A stretch of 11,061 nt of DNA from a virus: the UHGV virus genome UHGV-0272930; one strand, 5' to 3'. The position numbers and the translations under genes are program-made. The notes beneath the pieces are model-generated. The model was not told where the DNA came from. It did no database searches and was given only the letters and a program-made list of their open reading frames with translations. This document shows positions 1-11,061 of the stretch, one piece after another (the first letter of the stretch is position 1; every line of letters starts with the position of its first letter).

Positions 1-2
1 TG

Positions 3-110
3 CGGGCAACGGTGTTTAATTATATCGAATGTGATTACAATCGGTGGCGGCGGCACAGTTGGTGTGGCGGCCTCAGTCCGGAACAATTTGAAAACCAGAA
101 CCTCGCTTAG
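3..110 (+). CDS. insF: IS3 transposase OrfB (InsF), C-terminal fragment; 5' end lies outside the window
   Basis: Open frame from the window edge to TAG at 108-110; the translation matches the remembered IS3 OrfB C-terminus. Confidence 0.85.
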
Positions 111-140
111 GCCTGTGTCCATATTACGTGGGTAGGATCA
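102..140. repeat. IS3 right terminal inverted repeat (IRR)
   Basis: ctcgcttaggcctgtgtccatattacgtgggtaggatca; its reverse complement aligns with 10923-10961 at 28 of 39 positions, with the conserved TGATC tip. Confidence 0.85.
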
Positions 141-2505
141 TATTGTCCGTGCCGAATACGTCAAAGAATCCCATCTTAACCTTATATTCACCATCAACGA
201 TGTTTGGTACTGAGTCGAATTCAGGTGCATAACTGGTAAACAATCGGCTGGTATTCCCGTTAACAATACTGATAACAGCACCAGCATAATCACGTTCAGT
301 TGATTGTGTCCATGAAGCAAATAAATTACCAAAACCACCAGTGAATGATACGCCTTGTACTAATCCACATTGTTTGTTTTCTACTGTAATTTTCACTTCC
401 TGTGAATACGTTCCATCATTAAATCCCTGTGCGATAATACCAATAGTTGGTTTACGTACTTTTAAACGATTCATCGCAAGAGCGAAATTGAAACTATTGC
501 TTTGCGTATAGAAAGTATCTACAAGGGTTGTACCGTTATAGATTTTAATGATGTAGTACTTGAAGTAATCAGAATACGAGCGACCATTAACGATTAAGTT
601 CTTCTGTGAATCCCATGCAATATTAAAATCAGGTGCATCGGTGATTAACGCTGATTCAGTACGATTTGCCAGTACTACGCCAGTTACGGAAGGTAAAGCA
701 AAGTTATAAGTCGGTACTATTCCGTTAAGGGTTACACGCTGCGATACCAAACCAAGATTGTTATACGCCTCTACCCCAAAGTCATAGCTTGCAGTGTCAG
801 ACAATCCAAACAGTTCATAAGTGGTTTTCTGTACGCCCGTTTGCCCCGCATATGTCCATGTACTGGTACTGTGAAGTTTGTAGTAAACATAATAGCCCCG
901 TAGGTACGGATCTTCTGAAACCGTCCAGGTCAAATCAATGATAGAACCGCTGGTAGTGTTGCCCTTGCGTACTGCCTGTAGATTCGTTGGAGCCTTCACA
1001 GTAAGTTCAGGGAAGTTAATCACACCACCCGGCGACCATACGCCCGGATCTACACCGTCATACATCTGGTCAGGGGCTTCCACGCAGGTTAGCGTTACAT
1101 AGCCTACGTTCTCTTGATCGGTGGCAATGTCCTTGTTCAGTACTTTAAATTTACCTGAGATATTCAATTCGGCATTACTGACATTGATAGCATCCCATAC
1201 CTTGAGATCCCATCCTTCGGATGTGGTAAAGCTGATAGTACGTAAAGCATACTTTGCCTTGAGTACATCAACGTTTGCCATCTTAGCGATGACATCAGGA
1301 TCATATGACCAACTGTAATCACGACTAAGTGCGATTACCTGCCCGTCTTGCCGAACGGCTTCATCAACGGTTATATCTGAAGGTATGCGTACTACATCCG
1401 TGGTGTACATTGATTCAGGGTTAGTGAATTTGCAGTCAACCACATTGAAGTAGTCAGTACCGCCACTGGTTGAAATCTGTACAGCACCAACCATATTAGA
1501 TTCATTAAATGACGCTACTGAAACTGTTTTACGGTCTGTCGTAATACAAATCTGTCCGGCGTGAACATACATAATACCGCCAAATGATTGACAGATATTT
1601 TCTATGTTTTCTTTATAGCTTGATTGGTAACTGATAGCACCATTGGCGTAGTACTCGAAAGCATCACAATAGGCTGCCGTTTCTTTGAAGATATCAAGAT
1701 TAATTAATGCGGGATCAATACCCATCCCATACGTCGTATTTGTTAAGTAATCATAGATAATTGACGGTGGATTACTACTTGCTTTAATACTGCCATCCAC
1801 TAAATCAAAAATACGTTGCCCTTTCATTTCAACGGTCAAAGCAAACTGATCATTAACGAGAATGTTATTTTCTAATGATTTCTTCGTTTTCTTGATAACC
1901 GTACTGATACTAACAATGCCTTTACCAAGAAATTTATTAGTCCATTTTGGCCCTGCATATCCAGTAGCTAACGTTTTAGTACTGGTATAATCACCACCAA
2001 AGCGTACTTCTAGTTGTAGAAATTCCTGATACTTTTCCGCAATACTGGCTTTCGGTACTATGCCATCTTGTGTAATCGGTACGGCTAAAACTGGTTCGTT
2101 ATCGATATAGATCTGTAGAATATTCTTTTCAGTACCCGCATATGCTACAGCCTGTTCTGAAAAGAGATATTGAGAATCACTATTCGGTACGTTGTACCAT
2201 GACACAATTGAACCTGTCAGTACGTATGAACCGCCTGATACCCCGTTTTTATGTGGCAACTCACCGCCATAGATAACAGGTAATCCCGTAGTTGGGGAAG
2301 TACTTCGGCTTAATGAGTCCGACACATCCCCATAACCGCTTACGCCGATTTGCCCCAACATTGATGTAGCCACCAGTGAAGCAGCTCCCGCAGCAGCCCC
2401 CCAGCCAATCGCGGCTAATGCTGTACCGCCAGTAAAGTACACGGCTGCCGCGACAATTACCGCAGTTATGATAGCTCCAAAGAAGCCCCCTAAACTCTTA
2501 CCCAT
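124..2505 (-). CDS. Lambda gpJ-like central tail fibre / tip attachment protein with an N-terminal gpI-like hydrophobic Gly/Ala-rich domain; 3'-truncated by IS3 (native sequence ends at 141, last 4-5 codons and the stop come from the IS3 IRR)
   Basis: 793-aa ORF. Residues around 250-330 (IIYDYLTNTTYGMG...AAYCDAFEY) resemble the lambda J central region (WDMLTHPRYGMG...GQYCDQ). A fibronectin-III-like segment (LTWTVSEDPYLRGYYVYYKL...) follows. The N-terminal 60 residues (MGKSLGGFFGAIITAVIVAAAVYFTGGTALAAIGWGAAAGAASL) resemble the hydrophobic C-terminal half of lambda gpI. The reading frame runs across the IS3 junction at 140/141 and stops at 126..124 inside the IRR. Confidence 0.75.
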   Translation of the reverse strand: MGKSLGGFFGAIITAVIVAAAVYFTGGTALAAIGWGAAAGAASLVATSMLGQIGVSGYGDVSDSLSRSTSPTTGLPVIYGGELPHKNGVSGGSYVLTGSIVSWYNVPNSDSQYLFSEQAVAYAGTEKNILQIYIDNEPVLAVPITQDGIVPKASIAEKYQEFLQLEVRFGGDYTSTKTLATGYAGPKWTNKFLGKGIVSISTVIKKTKKSLENNILVNDQFALTVEMKGQRIFDLVDGSIKASSNPPSIIYDYLTNTTYGMGIDPALINLDIFKETAAYCDAFEYYANGAISYQSSYKENIENICQSFGGIMYVHAGQICITTDRKTVSVASFNESNMVGAVQISTSGGTDYFNVVDCKFTNPESMYTTDVVRIPSDITVDEAVRQDGQVIALSRDYSWSYDPDVIAKMANVDVLKAKYALRTISFTTSEGWDLKVWDAINVSNAELNISGKFKVLNKDIATDQENVGYVTLTCVEAPDQMYDGVDPGVWSPGGVINFPELTVKAPTNLQAVRKGNTTSGSIIDLTWTVSEDPYLRGYYVYYKLHSTSTWTYAGQTGVQKTTYELFGLSDTASYDFGVEAYNNLGLVSQRVTLNGIVPTYNFALPSVTGVVLANRTESALITDAPDFNIAWDSQKNLIVNGRSYSDYFKYYIIKIYNGTTLVDTFYTQSNSFNFALAMNRLKVRKPTIGIIAQGFNDGTYSQEVKITVENKQCGLVQGVSFTGGFGNLFASWTQSTERDYAGAVISIVNGNTSRLFTSYAPEFDSVPNIVDGEYKVKMGFFDVFGTDNMILPT

Positions 2506-2899
2506 TGTGTTTCCTTACTCTATAAAATGTTCCATTCGTTGGTTTTGGATGAAGTTCAAAGCCATCATGGCTTTCATTCACTCCAAGTACCCGACCTGAT
2601 ACAACCACTGCCATAATTAAAGGGTTATCAGGATCTAGCCATATATCACCGTCTATAACGACCTGTACGGGGTTACAGTACTGTTCAACTATCTCCCCTG
2701 TATGATTCCATCCTTCAGCCTTTAGACCTGCTATACCTTCCTGTACGCTTGTATATTCACGATTTGCTAATTGCGTAGTACCATTAATTAAATCGATAAT
2801 ACGTAATACAATAATATTGCAATCGTTATCTCCGAATTGATACGGGTTATCAATGGCGTACTGAATGACATTCATAATTTCATTGTGTAGATTTTTCAT
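2498..2899 (-). CDS. NlpC/P60-type tail tip peptidase, lambda gpK-like but lacking the N-terminal JAB/MPN domain
   Basis: 133 aa. QFGDNDCNIIVL and ESHDGFELHP resemble the Cys and His motifs of the gpK NlpC/P60 domain. Sits immediately upstream of the J-like gene with an 8-nt overlap, and its start overlaps the upstream stop as TAATG. No HxH...S..D JAMM motif is present. Confidence 0.55.
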   Translation of the reverse strand: MKNLHNEIMNVIQYAIDNPYQFGDNDCNIIVLRIIDLINGTTQLANREYTSVQEGIAGLKAEGWNHTGEIVEQYCNPVQVVIDGDIWLDPDNPLIMAVVVSGRVLGVNESHDGFELHPKPTNGTFYRVRKHNG

Positions 2900-3522
2900 T
2901 ATTTGTACTTCCAGTTTTGATTTTGATTAACTTGCCCTAACAGACTAAAGTACTCATCACCTTTGTAGTAAGATTGATATACTGAGTTAGCAGCAATTAA
3001 GGTCGGCTGTCGGTCTAGCTTTTTATATACACTGTTAACGTATATCGTCATTTCGTTAGTTTTTTGATTTGGGTCTGCTACTGCCTGTACGTAATCAATG
3101 AATCCTGAAAACATAAGCATTGAATCGATTACAGTACTGTCATATGGATTCAAGATTACTAATTTGATATTCATCTGAGCATCTTTAAGAAATCCACCTA
3201 ATGCAAGTGCACGTACTGATTGATTCACATTACTGACTTTGAAGTTGATAGCATCATTCGTGATGCCCTTTTGTTCTGAATAGGAAGGAAGTGAACCACT
3301 GATAATATCGGGGAAACTAATATATTGATAACCATCTAAATTGATATCTATAAGTGAGTCTGTCCAGTGAAAACCATTTGTGCCTTTTGGAAGTACATCA
3401 AAACAAGTTACCTGTACACCCAAGCTCATTACATCCATTAGTGTTAATCGTGTTTTCGTCGTACCTTTAACTAACTTCCAGTACTTCAATAGATTGGCAT
3501 TAGTAAAAACTGCATCATTCAT
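2899..3522 (-). CDS. Minor tail protein, lambda gpL-like (N-terminal domain only; no C-terminal Cys cluster)
   Basis: 207 aa. Occupies the lambda M-L-K-I-J position; weak motif resemblance (DGYQYISFP / FKVSNV against lambda L QYQPYP / LTVSNL). TAATG coupling at both ends. Confidence 0.45.
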   Translation of the reverse strand: MNDAVFTNANLLKYWKLVKGTTKTRLTLMDVMSLGVQVTCFDVLPKGTNGFHWTDSLIDINLDGYQYISFPDIISGSLPSYSEQKGITNDAINFKVSNVNQSVRALALGGFLKDAQMNIKLVILNPYDSTVIDSMLMFSGFIDYVQAVADPNQKTNEMTIYVNSVYKKLDRQPTLIAANSVYQSYYKGDEYFSLLGQVNQNQNWKYK

Positions 3523-4079
3523 TATGTAATATTCTCCGTTGCCTTAAATGTCATATTCATTATGTTACCGACTGGCAATGTATAGTCATTATCAGGGTCC
3601 AGTACTGCTTCGATCATCAGATTGTTATATTTAATAATCTCGCTTGCCTGTACTGTATTTTGTAAGACAGGAAAAATAGTAATAGAAGTACTGGTACGTT
3701 CTACAATGCGATATATTTTATTGTGGTTAGTAAATTGAATCCATTCACCTATCGCTAGAGAATTAGTACTGGTGTTGATTACCCTATTGCCTTTGTTAAC
3801 AAGTGCAGTACTGGTTAACGATCCCGTTTGTGTGCCTCTGTAGGTACTCAACAATCCAAGAGAAAAAGTAAAGGGCTTACCCTGTGAGTACTGAGCAAGG
3901 AAGTTTTGAACCTCTCCAATACTGGCAGTATTGAAACTTAACTGAAACTGAATCTCATAGTATTGAATACCTGTACTTCTCATGATACGTTGCCCTGTCC
4001 ATGTCTGATTTGAATAGACAGGTTCAGTACTTTTAATCTGGAAGTTTGTTATTTTTATTTGATTTGAAAAAGATGCCAT
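3522..4079 (-). CDS. Distal tail protein, lambda gpM-like with a C-terminal extension
   Basis: 185 aa. N-terminal segment YEIQFQLSF...EVQNFLAQYSQGKPFTF resembles lambda M (YSVTLSVPREEATVLESFLEEHGGWKSFLW). GAGGT Shine-Dalgarno 4-5 nt before the ATG at 4079. First gene of the tail tip set. Confidence 0.45.
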   Translation of the reverse strand: MASFSNQIKITNFQIKSTEPVYSNQTWTGQRIMRSTGIQYYEIQFQLSFNTASIGEVQNFLAQYSQGKPFTFSLGLLSTYRGTQTGSLTSTALVNKGNRVINTSTNSLAIGEWIQFTNHNKIYRIVERTSTSITIFPVLQNTVQASEIIKYNNLMIEAVLDPDNDYTLPVGNIMNMTFKATENIT

Positions 4080-4114
4080 TGTAACCTCAACAATCCTTGT
4101 TTCGAGTATTTATT

Positions 4115-4735
4115 ATGATTGACTTCTTAAACCACATATTGCCTATATTATCTGCTATTGCATTCCCTATAGTTGTTGTAGTAGTAACTCTTTATATAGT
4201 CTACAGAAGCGGAAGTACATCCATCATTGCTAATAAGATATGGGGGATATTCATTGGTGAGAAAAATTTCTTCAATGAAGAATTAGCATTAAAAGAAAAG
4301 GTTGAACATGATGTTGCTAAATTCAACTTTAAAGTAAATCTGAAAACCAGGAATCTCACTCAAATTGAACAATTTTATAAATTTCTGGAAAAATTCGATC
4401 TGGATATAGATAACTTCAAAGGACTTCGTGACTGCTACTTGCCCTCATTGCAGAAGGTCAAAAAAACATCTAAAAGTGAAATGTTTAATATTGGCCTGGT
4501 TGTCTTGTTAATAGGCGGTTTTTTGTTACCTATCTTCATTGGCGTGTTTATATTTAGAGACATTTCTACTTTCGACGGGGGGAAATTAGCAAATCTATTC
4601 TTTTATACGTTTTTAATTTCTGCCAGTACAGTTTTAAGTTTTAGTCAGTTACTTAGAAAGATTAAGTCAATCAGAACCCGTAAATTGATCTATAAAAAGA
4701 AATGCGAATATCTTGCAAACAGAAAGCCCATGTAG
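4115..4735 (+). CDS. Hypothetical membrane protein (moron) on the opposite strand to the structural operon; predicted N-terminal helix, soluble K/E/F-rich domain, two C-terminal helices and a basic tail; no recognisable family
   Basis: Only long plus-strand ORF not antisense to a minus-strand gene. ATG at 4115 (the ORF track begins at an in-frame TTG at 4097). Hydrophobic stretches ILPILSAIAFPIVVVVVTLYIVY, FNIGLVVLLIGGFLLPIFIGVFIF and FFYTFLISASTVLSFSQLL. Markedly more AT-rich than its neighbours by eye. Stop TAG at 4733-4735 lies inside a hairpin. Confidence 0.6.
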   Translation: MIDFLNHILPILSAIAFPIVVVVVTLYIVYRSGSTSIIANKIWGIFIGEKNFFNEELALKEKVEHDVAKFNFKVNLKTRNLTQIEQFYKFLEKFDLDIDNFKGLRDCYLPSLQKVKKTSKSEMFNIGLVVLLIGGFLLPIFIGVFIFRDISTFDGGKLANLFFYTFLISASTVLSFSQLLRKIKSIRTRKLIYKKKCEYLANRKPM

Positions 4736-4742: not shown

Positions 4743-5846
4743 TTAAGAATTACGTCTCTGGCTGCTTCTTACTGCCTGTGTCACACTGTTGGCGTGCTTC
4801 TTCAACATTTCATTGAATTTCTTATCATCACCTGCAACGTCACCCTGAATGATTAAGGGAGCGTTAACGGTGATGTCACCAGCAGTACTACCGCCTTTGT
4901 CCTGAGTATCGAGGAATTTAGTAAGTTTCTTGTTGGCTTCTGGCTGTACGACACGCTCACCGGCTTTCAGTACGAATGATTTATTATCATAACTAGATGG
5001 TAATTCATCTACGCCGCCGTGGAACTGCCCCGCATCAGCACCTTTTGCAGTACTGATAATGCTCAATCCAAGAGAGGCTACCTGTGCATAGTTCGCAAGG
5101 TTTTGAGGCCACGGCGTAGCAAGTGCCTGTGCAAGTGCGGATTGAATGCTTAGTACTGTCTGAGCTATCGTGATCCCACGTGAAACCATGAATGCCGCTT
5201 CGGCTGCACCAGACGATTCCCCAAATGCGGCCACCATCGCCCCACTAAGGTTTTGTGCAGTATCTGAGAAGATTGTGAGTTGTTGCTGTGCATTCTGGTT
5301 ACTGATATCAATGGCCTGAGCATTGTACTTTGCTGTTATACCAGTAGTGTTAGCACCTACGCCGTAATCCCCCTGATAGACAGGAAGAGGTGCAGCCATT
5401 GTCATTACACGGGCAACTACATCAGCAGGTGTAAATGAATAGGATTTAGTAACTACCTGATCCTTATCCCCGGATAATTGAGTACCCGTAACGTAACCAT
5501 TGACGATGGCATAAGTGATCTGACTTTCTTCTAAATCTAATTGATACTGAATAATGACCTGAAATACAGTTTGTGATTCAGCTATTTCATCTAAGAATTG
5601 GTGCGTAGGATCATCAGGTAAGTATGCAACCACAATATCAAATGGTTCTACTGATTTATCGGATAGTAGTACTGTCTTGTACTCATTATCATAGGTTTCA
5701 AAATTATTTGTTTCTGACTGGATGGTTAGAGCAGGAAATTCAGTTACATTATTAATAGTAACATTGCCTATGCCCTGTGGTGAACGGTTTCCAGTGTCCG
5801 TATTATATTGTAAAGTTAATCCCTTACCTGAAAAAATGTCGGCCAT
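4743..5846 (-). CDS. Chimeric tail protein: major tail tube (lambda gpV-like) N-terminal domain joined in frame to a tape-measure (lambda gpH-like) C-terminal region
   Basis: 367 aa. Residues 1 to about 150 (...TEFPALTIQSETNNFETYDNEY...KSVEPFDIVVAYLPDD...) resemble the gpV N-domain. Residues from about 160 are a Gly/Ala-rich hydrophobic block followed by GQFHGGVDEL...FVLKAGERVVQPEANKKL, resembling tape-measure C-termini. AAGGA Shine-Dalgarno 8 nt before the ATG at 5846. Confidence 0.5.
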   Translation of the reverse strand: MADIFSGKGLTLQYNTDTGNRSPQGIGNVTINNVTEFPALTIQSETNNFETYDNEYKTVLLSDKSVEPFDIVVAYLPDDPTHQFLDEIAESQTVFQVIIQYQLDLEESQITYAIVNGYVTGTQLSGDKDQVVTKSYSFTPADVVARVMTMAAPLPVYQGDYGVGANTTGITAKYNAQAIDISNQNAQQQLTIFSDTAQNLSGAMVAAFGESSGAAEAAFMVSRGITIAQTVLSIQSALAQALATPWPQNLANYAQVASLGLSIISTAKGADAGQFHGGVDELPSSYDNKSFVLKAGERVVQPEANKKLTKFLDTQDKGGSTAGDITVNAPLIIQGDVAGDDKKFNEMLKKHANSVTQAVRSSQRRNS

Positions 5847-6586: not shown

Positions 6587-10408
<3,822 letters not shown>

Positions 10409-10411
10409 TTA

Positions 10412-10961
<550 letters not shown>

Positions 10962-10987
10962 TAAACTCTCAGTCAGAGGTGACTCAC

Positions 10988-11061
10988 ATGACAAAAACAG
11001 TATCAACCAGTAAAAAACCCCGTAAACAGCATTCGCCTGAATTTCGCAGTGAAGCCCTGAA
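10988..11061 (+). CDS. insE: IS3 transposase OrfA (InsE), N-terminal 24 codons; continues beyond the window
   Basis: ATG at 10988 preceded by GAGGTGACTCAC; translation MTKTVSTSKKPRKQHSPEFRSEAL. Confidence 0.85.
   Translation, partial: MTKTVSTSKKPRKQHSPEFRSEAL

Follow-up and report, generated by a model that had tools for sequence, protein, structure and literature searches.

A prophage tail-tip hub gene probably split by IS3, with its central-fibre end removed from the reading frame

The window analysed here, a stretch of 11,061 nucleotides from the virus genome UHGV-0272930, holds a block of an E. coli prophage in which the tail-tip gene (124..2505, minus strand) runs into one end of an insertion sequence and stops there. 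The explanation in which we have high confidence is a simple transposition of IS3 into this gene, which removed its central-fibre end. The junction, the truncation and the missing domains are shown, and so are, in sister genomes, the displaced fragment and the target duplication. The splitting of a tail-tip gene by IS3 is a known kind of event and belongs to ordinary prophage decay.

The tail-tip open reading frame (2505..124, minus strand) comprises 793 codons, and its translation ends with ...FDVFGTDNMILPT before the stop. On the minus strand, the junction reads ...GAC AAT A/TG ATC CTA CCC ACG TAA: the last native base is 141, the IS3 terminal sequence TGATCCTACCCACG starts at base 140, and TAA, the stop codon, lies at 126..124. 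Of the 793 codons, 788 are native (141..2505), one is a hybrid and four belong to IS3. Hybrid codon 789 joins a native A to TG from IS3 and encodes M (ATG) where the native gene encodes I (ATT); everything after it, codons 790-793 (ILPT) and the stop codon, derives from IS3 alone. The open reading frame and the minus-strand read agree, and bear out the original prediction that a J-like frame crosses 141/140, terminates at TAA 126..124 in the IS3 right inverted repeat and acquires an IS-encoded tail, (M)ILPT. The alignment of the window with an intact homologous locus (L003) ends at window base 140, a base that matches because the next native base is, by chance, also a T.

The native length of the protein is given by its homologues. 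P0001 and others at 97-99% identity are 1067 aa long, and their pairwise alignment with the window frame ends at residue 788/789; the proposed comparison with full-length homologues confirms that the gene is cut by IS3 and that the distal fibre part is absent from the frame. About 100 full-length homologues, at 61-99% identity, all continue beyond residue 788, and none ends there, which argues against a lineage whose J-family proteins naturally finish at this point. Length variation among intact relatives (1020-1350 aa) lies entirely after residue 789, in a mosaic C-terminal region. A single record among complete E. coli genomes has the tail-tip gene, at 76% nucleotide identity and encoding a 1067-aa homologue (H1); it is informative on the native length and uninformative on the insertion. 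The earlier view held the protein to be several hundred residues shorter than lambda J; the loss amounts to 279 residues, and the appropriate yardstick is the native 1067 aa and not the 1132 aa of lambda J.

What remains in the 793-aa frame is a pair of hydrophobic helices at the N-terminus, the hub domains and the greater part of three FN3-like domains. The 279 missing residues cover the final strand of the third FN3-like domain together with the helical shaft, the PF09327 (Phage_Tail_Tip) central straight fibre and the C-terminal tip, and their sequence matches in the PDB are tail-tip fibres. A Pfam search of the window frame gives no match to PF09327, which is detected in P0001 at full length (E = 6.8e-20) as well as in P0121, the displaced fragment (E = 2.1e-21); its absence from the window frame is the truncation itself. 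In lambda gpJ, the hub domains are followed by FNIII-1/2, the helical shaft, the central straight fibre and the receptor-binding domain, and the C-terminus plays a role in host specificity (PMC11101478). The family architecture and the mosaic variability past residue 789 suggest that the lost 279 residues may contribute to receptor specificity. A lambda-like Ig receptor-binding domain was not identified in the canonical 1067-aa form.

The sequence at 1..140 (plus strand) is the right end of IS3. It contains the last orfB codons, whose stop is at 108..110, together with the right inverted repeat at approximately 102..140, and it ends with ...GGGTAGGATCA at base 140. Over its 140 nt this segment shows 100% identity with the IS3 copies of L009 and L013, and it matches loci annotated as 'IS3-like element IS3 family transposase' in 4109 of the 5426 complete E. 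coli genomes; the resemblance is therefore not due to chance. The terminal imperfect inverted repeats of IS3 begin with TGATC (left, TGATCTTACCCAGC...; right, TGATCCTACCCACG...); the right one occupies window positions 140 to 127 (minus strand) and the left one 10925-10938 (plus strand), and neither differs from the corresponding IS3 end of L004, L009 and L013. The window holds both IS3 ends only, and the length of the element and its orfA/orfB were read from L004, where the whole IS3 spans 1258 bp (8759-10016) with a 387-aa transposase call carrying HTH_Tnp_1 and rve; RefSeq words the matching element as 'IS3 family transposase, programmed frameshift'. The element shares its terminal repeats and orfA/orfB ends with the IS3 of E. 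coli (IS3 family, IS3 group), with 1258 bp and a 3-bp duplication in L004, and shows a few base differences from the commonest E. coli IS3 copy and otherwise nothing notable.

IS3-family elements duplicate 3-5 bp of their target (PMC10379815). Comparison of L004 with intact L003 places one copy of a 3-bp target-site duplication (TAT on the plus strand, ATA in the sense of the gene) at window 141..143. L004 reads ...GGACAATA/TGATCC...IS3...AAGATCA/ATATTCAGTAC, and intact L003 reads GGACAATATTCAGTAC. ATA flanks IS3 on both sides in L004 and L005 and is present as a single copy in L003; the window shows one side only. The presence of the 3-bp ATA on both sides of IS3 therefore indicates a simple insertion.

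The search for the displaced 3′ part of the gene beyond an IS3 copy, as had been advised, located it directly on the far side in near-identical genomes. The order in GCA_051373025.1 is the 793-aa frame, the 1258-bp IS3 and a 285-aa frame, and the 5′ part, IS3 and 3′ part with ATA on both sides are found in L004 and L009 (GCA_051373025.1) and in L005 (GCA_045582325.1). The phage block of the window differs from that of GCA_051373025.1 (L009) by three substitutions and one 22-bp indel. The displaced fragment (P0121) is 285 aa long, composed of MLGKIN followed by 279 aa that are 99% identical to the missing part, and is carried by at least 44 contigs. Its start TTG and first five codons (MLGKI) lie inside the IS3 left inverted repeat, and the codon of the sixth residue, N, straddles the boundary between IS3 and the duplication. 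A promoter scan found no promoter-like site reading out of the left inverted repeat into this frame, and so lends no support to its being expressed. The window itself ends inside IS3, and the ATA-TTCAGTACTGTCCAGAGC junction between the left end and the 3′ part was read from the sister genomes. All three contigs with the exact 793-aa protein are 10-20 kb long and break at IS3; every one of them ends in IS3, and the far side is unreadable there. The sister genomes suggest that the genome of the window probably carries the same split arrangement.

Altogether, these findings make it very likely that a copy of the E. coli IS3 (1258 bp, copy-out-paste-in) inserted by ordinary transposition at codon 789 of a 1067-codon gene, duplicating the 3-bp ATA. 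The disrupted gene encodes the tail-tip hub and central fibre and corresponds to lambda gpJ, with a hub like that of T5 pb3. Its upstream piece continues for four codons inside the right inverted repeat of IS3 before reaching a stop, yielding a 793-aa frame with hub and FN3 domains, and in near-identical genomes the downstream 279 codons stand directly beyond the element, where they are called as a 285-aa frame.

A rather improbable alternative is that an IS3-associated deletion or rearrangement was involved, the 3′ part of the tail-tip gene being lost or located elsewhere and the 10.8-kb block being rearranged as a circular or tandem unit. This reading draws on the other end of the window, where a second IS3 interrupts the large terminase gene at base 10924. 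The remnant (10412..10924, minus strand) is the 3′ part of terL and retains the nuclease part only (GpA_nuclease match), the ATPase part of the intact 579-587 aa protein of L011 and L012 having been lost through this IS3. The sequence at 10925..11061 (plus strand) is an IS3 left end, with the left inverted repeat TGATCTTACCCAGC... and the orfA start MTKTVSTSKK..., and shows 100% identity with the IS3 left ends of L004 and L013. It lies in the same orientation as the right end at 1..140, so that the two ends are directly oriented in the window. The IS3 left repeat adjoins terL in the window, whereas two long near-identical assemblies have this second IS3 in the opposite orientation, with the right repeat at the same base, and lack the junction seen here. 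IS3-adjacent deletion is also known in this lineage, 1.36 kb being missing from L009 on the left side of its terL IS3, and an IS3 moving intramolecularly from the tail-tip gene into a GTT site would be predicted to yield both window junctions. Against such a history for the tail-tip gene, the 3′ fragment starts at the IS3 left repeat and ATA in every fetched contig that carries it (L004-L008), including ENA metagenome contigs (ERZ27246718, ERZ27229783) with accessions near that of the sample of L002, the contig carrying the exact 793-aa protein of the window. The junction between the 5′ part and the right repeat is identical in all of L004-L008, and the phage block is nearly identical to GCA_051373025.1.

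The difference at terL nevertheless establishes that the genome of the window is not structurally identical to the two long proxy assemblies. Homologous recombination between the two IS3 copies was considered as its cause and rejected by reasoning, because the junctions between IS ends and flanks stay unchanged under recombination inside the IS. A model of flipped simple insertion predicts a fusion protein of the terL 5′ part with the right repeat, which is absent from a collection of 15 billion proteins; the control fusion of the terL 5′ part with the left repeat is present in it, and the test is undecisive on this model. Exact-pattern scans of GTDB species genomes and JGI metagenomes gave no matches to the junction between the left repeat and the terL 3′ part. 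It is conceivable, if doubtful, that the 10.8-kb block is a circular or tandem unit of IS3 plus segment formed by intramolecular IS3 transposition, or that the terminase IS3 was flipped in place; the latter may have occurred, for example, if an insertion was targeted to the repeat and one copy of the palindrome so formed was then lost. Either event, if real, would be an unusual and recent IS3-mediated rearrangement caught between sister strains.

The tail-tip frame of the window matches phrog_31 'central tail fiber J' (E = 3.6e-46), a family that matches both halves of the gene, and Pfam detects fn3 at residues 505-585 and Phage-tail_3 (PF13550) at 24.3 bits against a cut-off of 23. Foldseek comparison of an AF2 model gives its best fold matches to T5/DT57C pb3, at E of about 1e-27 (8hqz_A, 1.3e-27; 7zhj_b, 1.5e-26), followed by the lambda gpJ entries 8k35 and 8iyk at about 1e-22; the hubs of T1, Chi and JBD30 are also matched, within an overall range of 1e-27 to 1e-21. 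The model contains three beta-sandwich domains at approximately 505-800 (pLDDT 78-91), and in the last of them residue 788 lies after strand 772-782 and before strand 795-799; helices start at residue 807. The gene order of distal tail protein, tail protein, DUF6950 protein and J-like gene is that of the distal end of a tail module and is the same in intact L003. Lambda gpJ is encoded at the corresponding place, closing the tail module behind the positions of the distal tail protein, L and K, and it has the same domain order of hub, FN3 domains, helical shaft and PF09327 central straight fibre. Sequence similarity to lambda J reaches E = 6e-5 by BLAST over the hub, with only about 24% identity across some 150 residues. 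In contrast to gpJ, a pair of hydrophobic helices resembling gpI H1/H2 is fused in front, the model has three FN3-like domains rather than two, and the 1067-aa form (vs 1132 aa) has no identified lambda-type Ig receptor-binding domain. A tblastn search of a 50,697-record phage collection found no close cultured relative, the best J homologue having 28.6% identity.

The resemblance to pb3 raises the question of whether 793 aa could be a natural short form, a hub ending after the FN3 domains with the fibre encoded separately. In T5, pb3 ends after its FNIII domains and the central fibre is a separate protein, pb4, encoded by a separate gene. Hub and FNIII domains are common to both systems, but here a single gene encodes hub and fibre in every intact relative, and the split made by the IS falls inside a domain. 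IS3 supplies the final 4.7 codons together with the stop, a beta-sandwich modelled with confidence loses its last strand at the cut, and the downstream frame begins with a TTG inside the IS repeat. The junction read, the end of the alignment at 788/789 and the continuity of all of the approximately 100 homologues (61-99% identity) across residue 788 refute this reading, which retains hardly any probability. A chimeric junction produced by repeat assembly is just as implausible: the window does resemble a short-read contig, each end of which lies about 140 bases inside a repeat (a k141 contig of 11,050 bp), yet the junction GGACAATA/TGATCCTACCC recurs in the independent assemblies L004, L005 and L009, including two 4.8 Mb contigs, and a 793-aa allele with one residue different (WP_249437062.1, 'phage tail protein') is found on 49 contigs.

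The N-terminal segment had been described as gpI-like over roughly 100 residues, of which about 55 withstand a shuffle-controlled comparison. Residues 2-56 align with lambda gpI 96-146 (hydrophobic helices H1/H2) with a Smith-Waterman score of 83, against 40.9 +/- 7.1 for shuffled sequences, none of 2000 reaching 83. The following residues (56-110) are weakly similar to gpI, their score being reached by 89 of 2000 shuffles. BLAST (E = 0.58) and hhalign (probability 5.7%) are unsupportive for this low-complexity segment, as is Pfam, with no gpI-related match at E <= 10. Two helices are modelled at residues 8-24 and 32-44.

The other genes of the phage block described here lie on the minus strand. 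The DUF6950 protein (2498..2899, 133 aa; PF22262, phrog_2134) stands in the lambda K position, with the same gene order in L003, and is preceded by a 207-aa tail protein in the lambda L position (2899..3522; phrog_2048 'tail protein', E = 3.9e-24) and by the 185-aa distal tail protein (3522..4079; phrog_1302 'distal tail protein', with a weak Pfam match to the DTP-pb9 B domain). A 367-aa in-frame fusion (4743..5846, junction 5339/5340) is the scar of a 5.1-kb deletion, its halves matching PHROGs separately: it begins with the N-terminal part of a 928-aa Peptidase_S74 fibre-like protein and ends with the C-terminal part of a 736-aa tape measure protein. By blastn, L003 2025-7166 is absent from the window, and the deletion removed the tail tube, the chaperone and most of the tape measure. 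The intact prophage encodes the 928-aa S74 side-fibre-like protein in full, and this protein could also carry specificity.

The prophage, integrated next to mipA-yeaE-yeaD-gapA, is cryptic and carries no fewer than three lesions that inactivate it, among them the IS3 in the tail-tip gene, the 5.1-kb deletion and the terminase IS3. The block is unable to make a tail tube or to package DNA; the suggestion that its particles would be devoid of a receptor-binding domain is therefore moot, and the insertion is without consequence for particle formation. E. coli K-12 cryptic prophages, such as DLP12 and CP4-6, carry IS3 copies. The present prophage resembles them in being defective, with IS insertions and internal deletions, and in being retained in the chromosome, and differs in belonging to another prophage family, with no J homologue above 29% identity in the 50,697-record phage collection.

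The split carries little biological weight, adding another IS-inactivated gene to a dead prophage. It matters for annotation, as databases list the two halves as ordinary proteins, WP_249437062.1 'phage tail protein' and a 285-aa 'phage tail tip fiber protein', and the 793-aa and 285-aa entries should become one IS-disrupted pseudogene. The intact relatives form a widespread enterobacterial prophage family with no close cultured representative, and are of potential interest to those cataloguing receptor-binding modules.

A simple IS3 insertion fully explains the truncation of the J-like gene, which encodes the tail-tip hub and central fibre; the gene is of the gpJ/pb3 type, the E. coli prophage that carries it has decayed, and events of this kind are known. 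The original prediction, that IS3 cuts this gene and that its distal part is absent from the ORF, is confirmed by the junction read, the 1067-aa homologues and the displaced fragment; its coordinates and description of the junction agree with the ORF list, the translation and the minus-strand read. The minus-strand ORF (2505..124) comprises 793 codons and reads ...GGC ACG GAC AAT A/TG ATC CTA CCC ACG TAA at the junction, the slash marking window bases 141/140. The right end of IS3 occupies the window from base 140 leftwards (terminal repeat TGATCCTACCCACG...) and includes the plus-strand end of orfB, with its stop at 108..110. Related loci carry IS3 copies with 100% identity to window 1..140, and of 5426 complete E. 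coli genomes, 4109 contain annotated IS3 that this stretch matches. Codon 789 is hybrid (ATG, M, versus native ATT, I), while codons 790-793 (ILPT) and the TAA stop at 126..124 are IS3-derived. A promoter-like pair (TTGACG-16 nt-TATGAT; consensus match only) straddles the junction between the J 5′ part and the right repeat at 8735-8762 of L004, a GCA_051373025.1 locus (window about 137-164, minus strand), and is directed into the IS, antisense to the transposase.

The J-like label proved correct by fold and profile, the protein being a distant relative, since profile and fold matches are obtained but direct BLAST links it only weakly to lambda J (E = 6e-5, with 24% identity across the hub). 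The window ORF matches phrog_31 "central tail fiber J" in PHROGs (E = 3.6e-46), and fn3 and, at borderline level, Phage-tail_3 in Pfam. The full-length homologue was modelled with AlphaFold2 (mean pLDDT 65, hub and FN3 parts 70-90), and Foldseek with this model retrieved T5/DT57C pb3 (E about 1e-27), lambda gpJ (8k35, 8iyk; E about 1e-22) and hubs from T1, Chi and JBD30. Genes for a DUF6950 protein, a tail protein and a distal tail protein lie upstream, which is the siphophage tail-tip gene order. The family is widespread in prophages of Enterobacteriaceae (Escherichia, Klebsiella, Enterobacter, Kosakonia, Rahnella, Pantoea, Erwinia and others), and no cultured phage in a 50,697-record collection encodes a protein more than 29% identical.

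Protein search retrieved many homologues of 1067 aa at 97-99% identity. Alignment to one of these (P0001) gives 779/789 identical residues and ends at residue 788/789; therefore, 279 residues (26%) are missing from the window ORF. A natural end at this point, which would have accounted for the short protein, is contradicted by about 100 aligned full-length homologues (61-99% identity, 1020-1350 aa): all of them cross residue 788, and they vary in length only after residue 789. The model puts residue 788 inside the last beta-sandwich that is folded with confidence, after strand 772-782 and before strand 795-799, with helices starting at 807. What the ORF has lost is therefore the final strand of FN3-like domain three, the helical shaft, the Phage_Tail_Tip domain (PF09327) and the C-terminal tip. 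Pfam finds PF09327 in P0001 (E = 6.8e-20) and gives no PF09327 match in the window ORF. Among solved structures, the missing part has sequence matches to tail-tip fibres, namely 7z4b_EA, the phage T1 tail-tip protein 9l9p_S, 9ze4_N and the F2-pyocin fibre; its counterpart in lambda gpJ is the shaft, central straight fibre and tip. PMC11101478 describes how the domains of gpJ are ordered and what its C-terminus contributes to host specificity.

The search for the displaced 3′ part succeeded beyond an IS3 copy in two 4.8-Mb assemblies, GCA_051373025.1 and GCA_045582325.1, where the J 5′ part, an opposite-strand IS3 and a 285-aa ORF follow in order. The former has the window's 793-aa ORF as its J 5′ part; in the latter, an additional IS has shortened this part to 714 aa. 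Over 10.8 kb of phage block, GCA_051373025.1 differs from the window by 3 substitutions and one 22-bp indel and is thus a very close proxy for it. Its IS3 (1258 bp, L004 8759-10016) is flanked as ...GGACAATA/TGATCC...AAGATCA/ATATTCAGTAC, compared with GGACAATATTCAGTAC in the intact gene, revealing a 3-bp ATA duplication, in line with the 3-5 bp that elements of the IS3 family duplicate (PMC10379815). The 285-aa protein (P0121), retrieved with the missing 279 residues, is 99% identical to them, occurs on at least 44 contigs and is annotated "MULTISPECIES: phage tail tip fiber protein [Escherichia]". It begins MLGKIN, then IQYCPEQ...; codons 1-5, including the TTG start, derive from the IS3 left repeat, and codon 6 (AAT, N) straddles the boundary between IS3 and the duplication. 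The left repeat also leads directly into the J 3′ part at the start of three more contigs, two of which come from ENA metagenomes. A scan for promoter-like sites directed out of the left repeat into the 3′ fragment found none. Both gene halves are already in public databases without a pseudogene flag: NCBI lists WP_249437062.1 (793 aa, "phage tail protein") and P0121 as ordinary proteins, not as one disrupted pseudogene.

The lost part is a reasonable candidate for the specificity module. One homologue (P0002) is 99% identical over residues 1-788 versus 87-92% over 831-990, relatives of 1233-1350 aa have the last ~77 residues swapped for longer, unrelated modules, and others carry 33-130-residue insertions in the shaft. 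Across the family, C-terminal modules are mosaic, with protein lengths from 1020 to 1350 aa. Two points count against a simple specificity reading, however: no lambda-type Ig receptor-binding domain was identified in the canonical 1067-aa form, and the 928-946-aa Peptidase_S74 fibre-like protein that intact prophages also encode may bind receptors as well.

About 100 N-terminal residues had been described as gpI-like; on alignment scores, the resemblance appears real over about 55 of them, as an unproven homology. Smith-Waterman alignment of residues 2-56 to gpI 96-146 scores 83, against 40.9 +/- 7.1 for composition-preserving shuffles (reached by 0/2000), while the score of the following 55 residues, weakly similar, is reached by 89/2000. 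Homology to gpI was not established by BLAST (E = 0.58), Pfam at E <= 10 or hhalign (probability 5.7%). The gpI region contains two hydrophobic helices, H1/H2 (PMC11101478), and the model places helices at 8-24 and 32-44 of the J-like protein.

The prophage is dead: its tail tube cannot be made and its DNA cannot be packaged. Compared by blastn with an intact homologous prophage locus (L003, 98% identity), the window lacks L003 2025-7166. Lost with this stretch are the major tail protein gene, two ORFs in chaperone position and the greater part of both the S74 fibre-like gene and the 736-aa tape measure gene. This 5.1-kb deletion joins the N-terminus of the 928-aa Peptidase_S74 fibre-like protein to the tape measure C-terminus in an in-frame 367-aa ORF (4743..5846, junction 5339/5340), whose halves match different PHROG families; in GCA_051373025.1, an extra 22-bp deletion (window 5262-5283) breaks it into 219 and 148 aa. 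The left end of a second IS3 (10925..11061) cuts the large terminase gene (terL), leaving only the nuclease-domain end (10412-10924). Given the deletion and the cut terminase, the prediction that any particle would have no native receptor-binding domain becomes moot.

The orientation of this second IS3 differs between loci. In the window and in L002, a contig carrying the same 793-aa protein, the left repeat adjoins the terL 3′ fragment (...GGGTAAGATCA/GTTCACC), whereas in two near-identical genomes, at L009 (GCA_051373025.1; 9464-9477) and L013 (8220-9477), the right repeat lies at the same terL base (...GGGTAGGATCA/GTTCACC), as compared with window 10925-11061 plus 1-140. L013 has a clean simple insertion at this base, with a GTT duplication. 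Both window ends (1-140, 10925-11061) are IS3 ends in direct orientation. The difference may reflect independent insertion at the same site in opposite orientation, an in-place flip of IS3, or a circular or tandem unit of IS3 plus segment. The predicted terL5′-right-repeat fusion protein was absent from the protein collection, in which the terL5′-left-repeat control was present, and exact-pattern scans of two DNA collections for the junction between the left repeat and the terL 3′ part gave no matches. Recombination inside IS copies is unable to change such junctions between IS end and flank. The oddity leaves a small chance that the J 3′ part is not adjacent in the window's own genome. Beyond the terL IS3, L013 retains the terL 5′ part (432 aa), and L009 has lost another 1.36 kb beside the IS, extending into a small-terminase-like DUF1441 gene.

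A DUF6216 gene (window 4097-4735, plus strand, 212 aa, TTG start), without a PHROG match, separates the tape measure gene from the distal tail protein gene and runs opposite to them; its presence at the same place in intact relatives (L003 7771-8391) suggests a conserved moron-type insert. A single 608-aa ORF (6587-8413) fuses prohead protease (Peptidase_S78) to major capsid protein (Phage_capsid) and shares 53 bases with the end of the lambda-family portal gene (8361-9869); intact relatives have the same arrangement.
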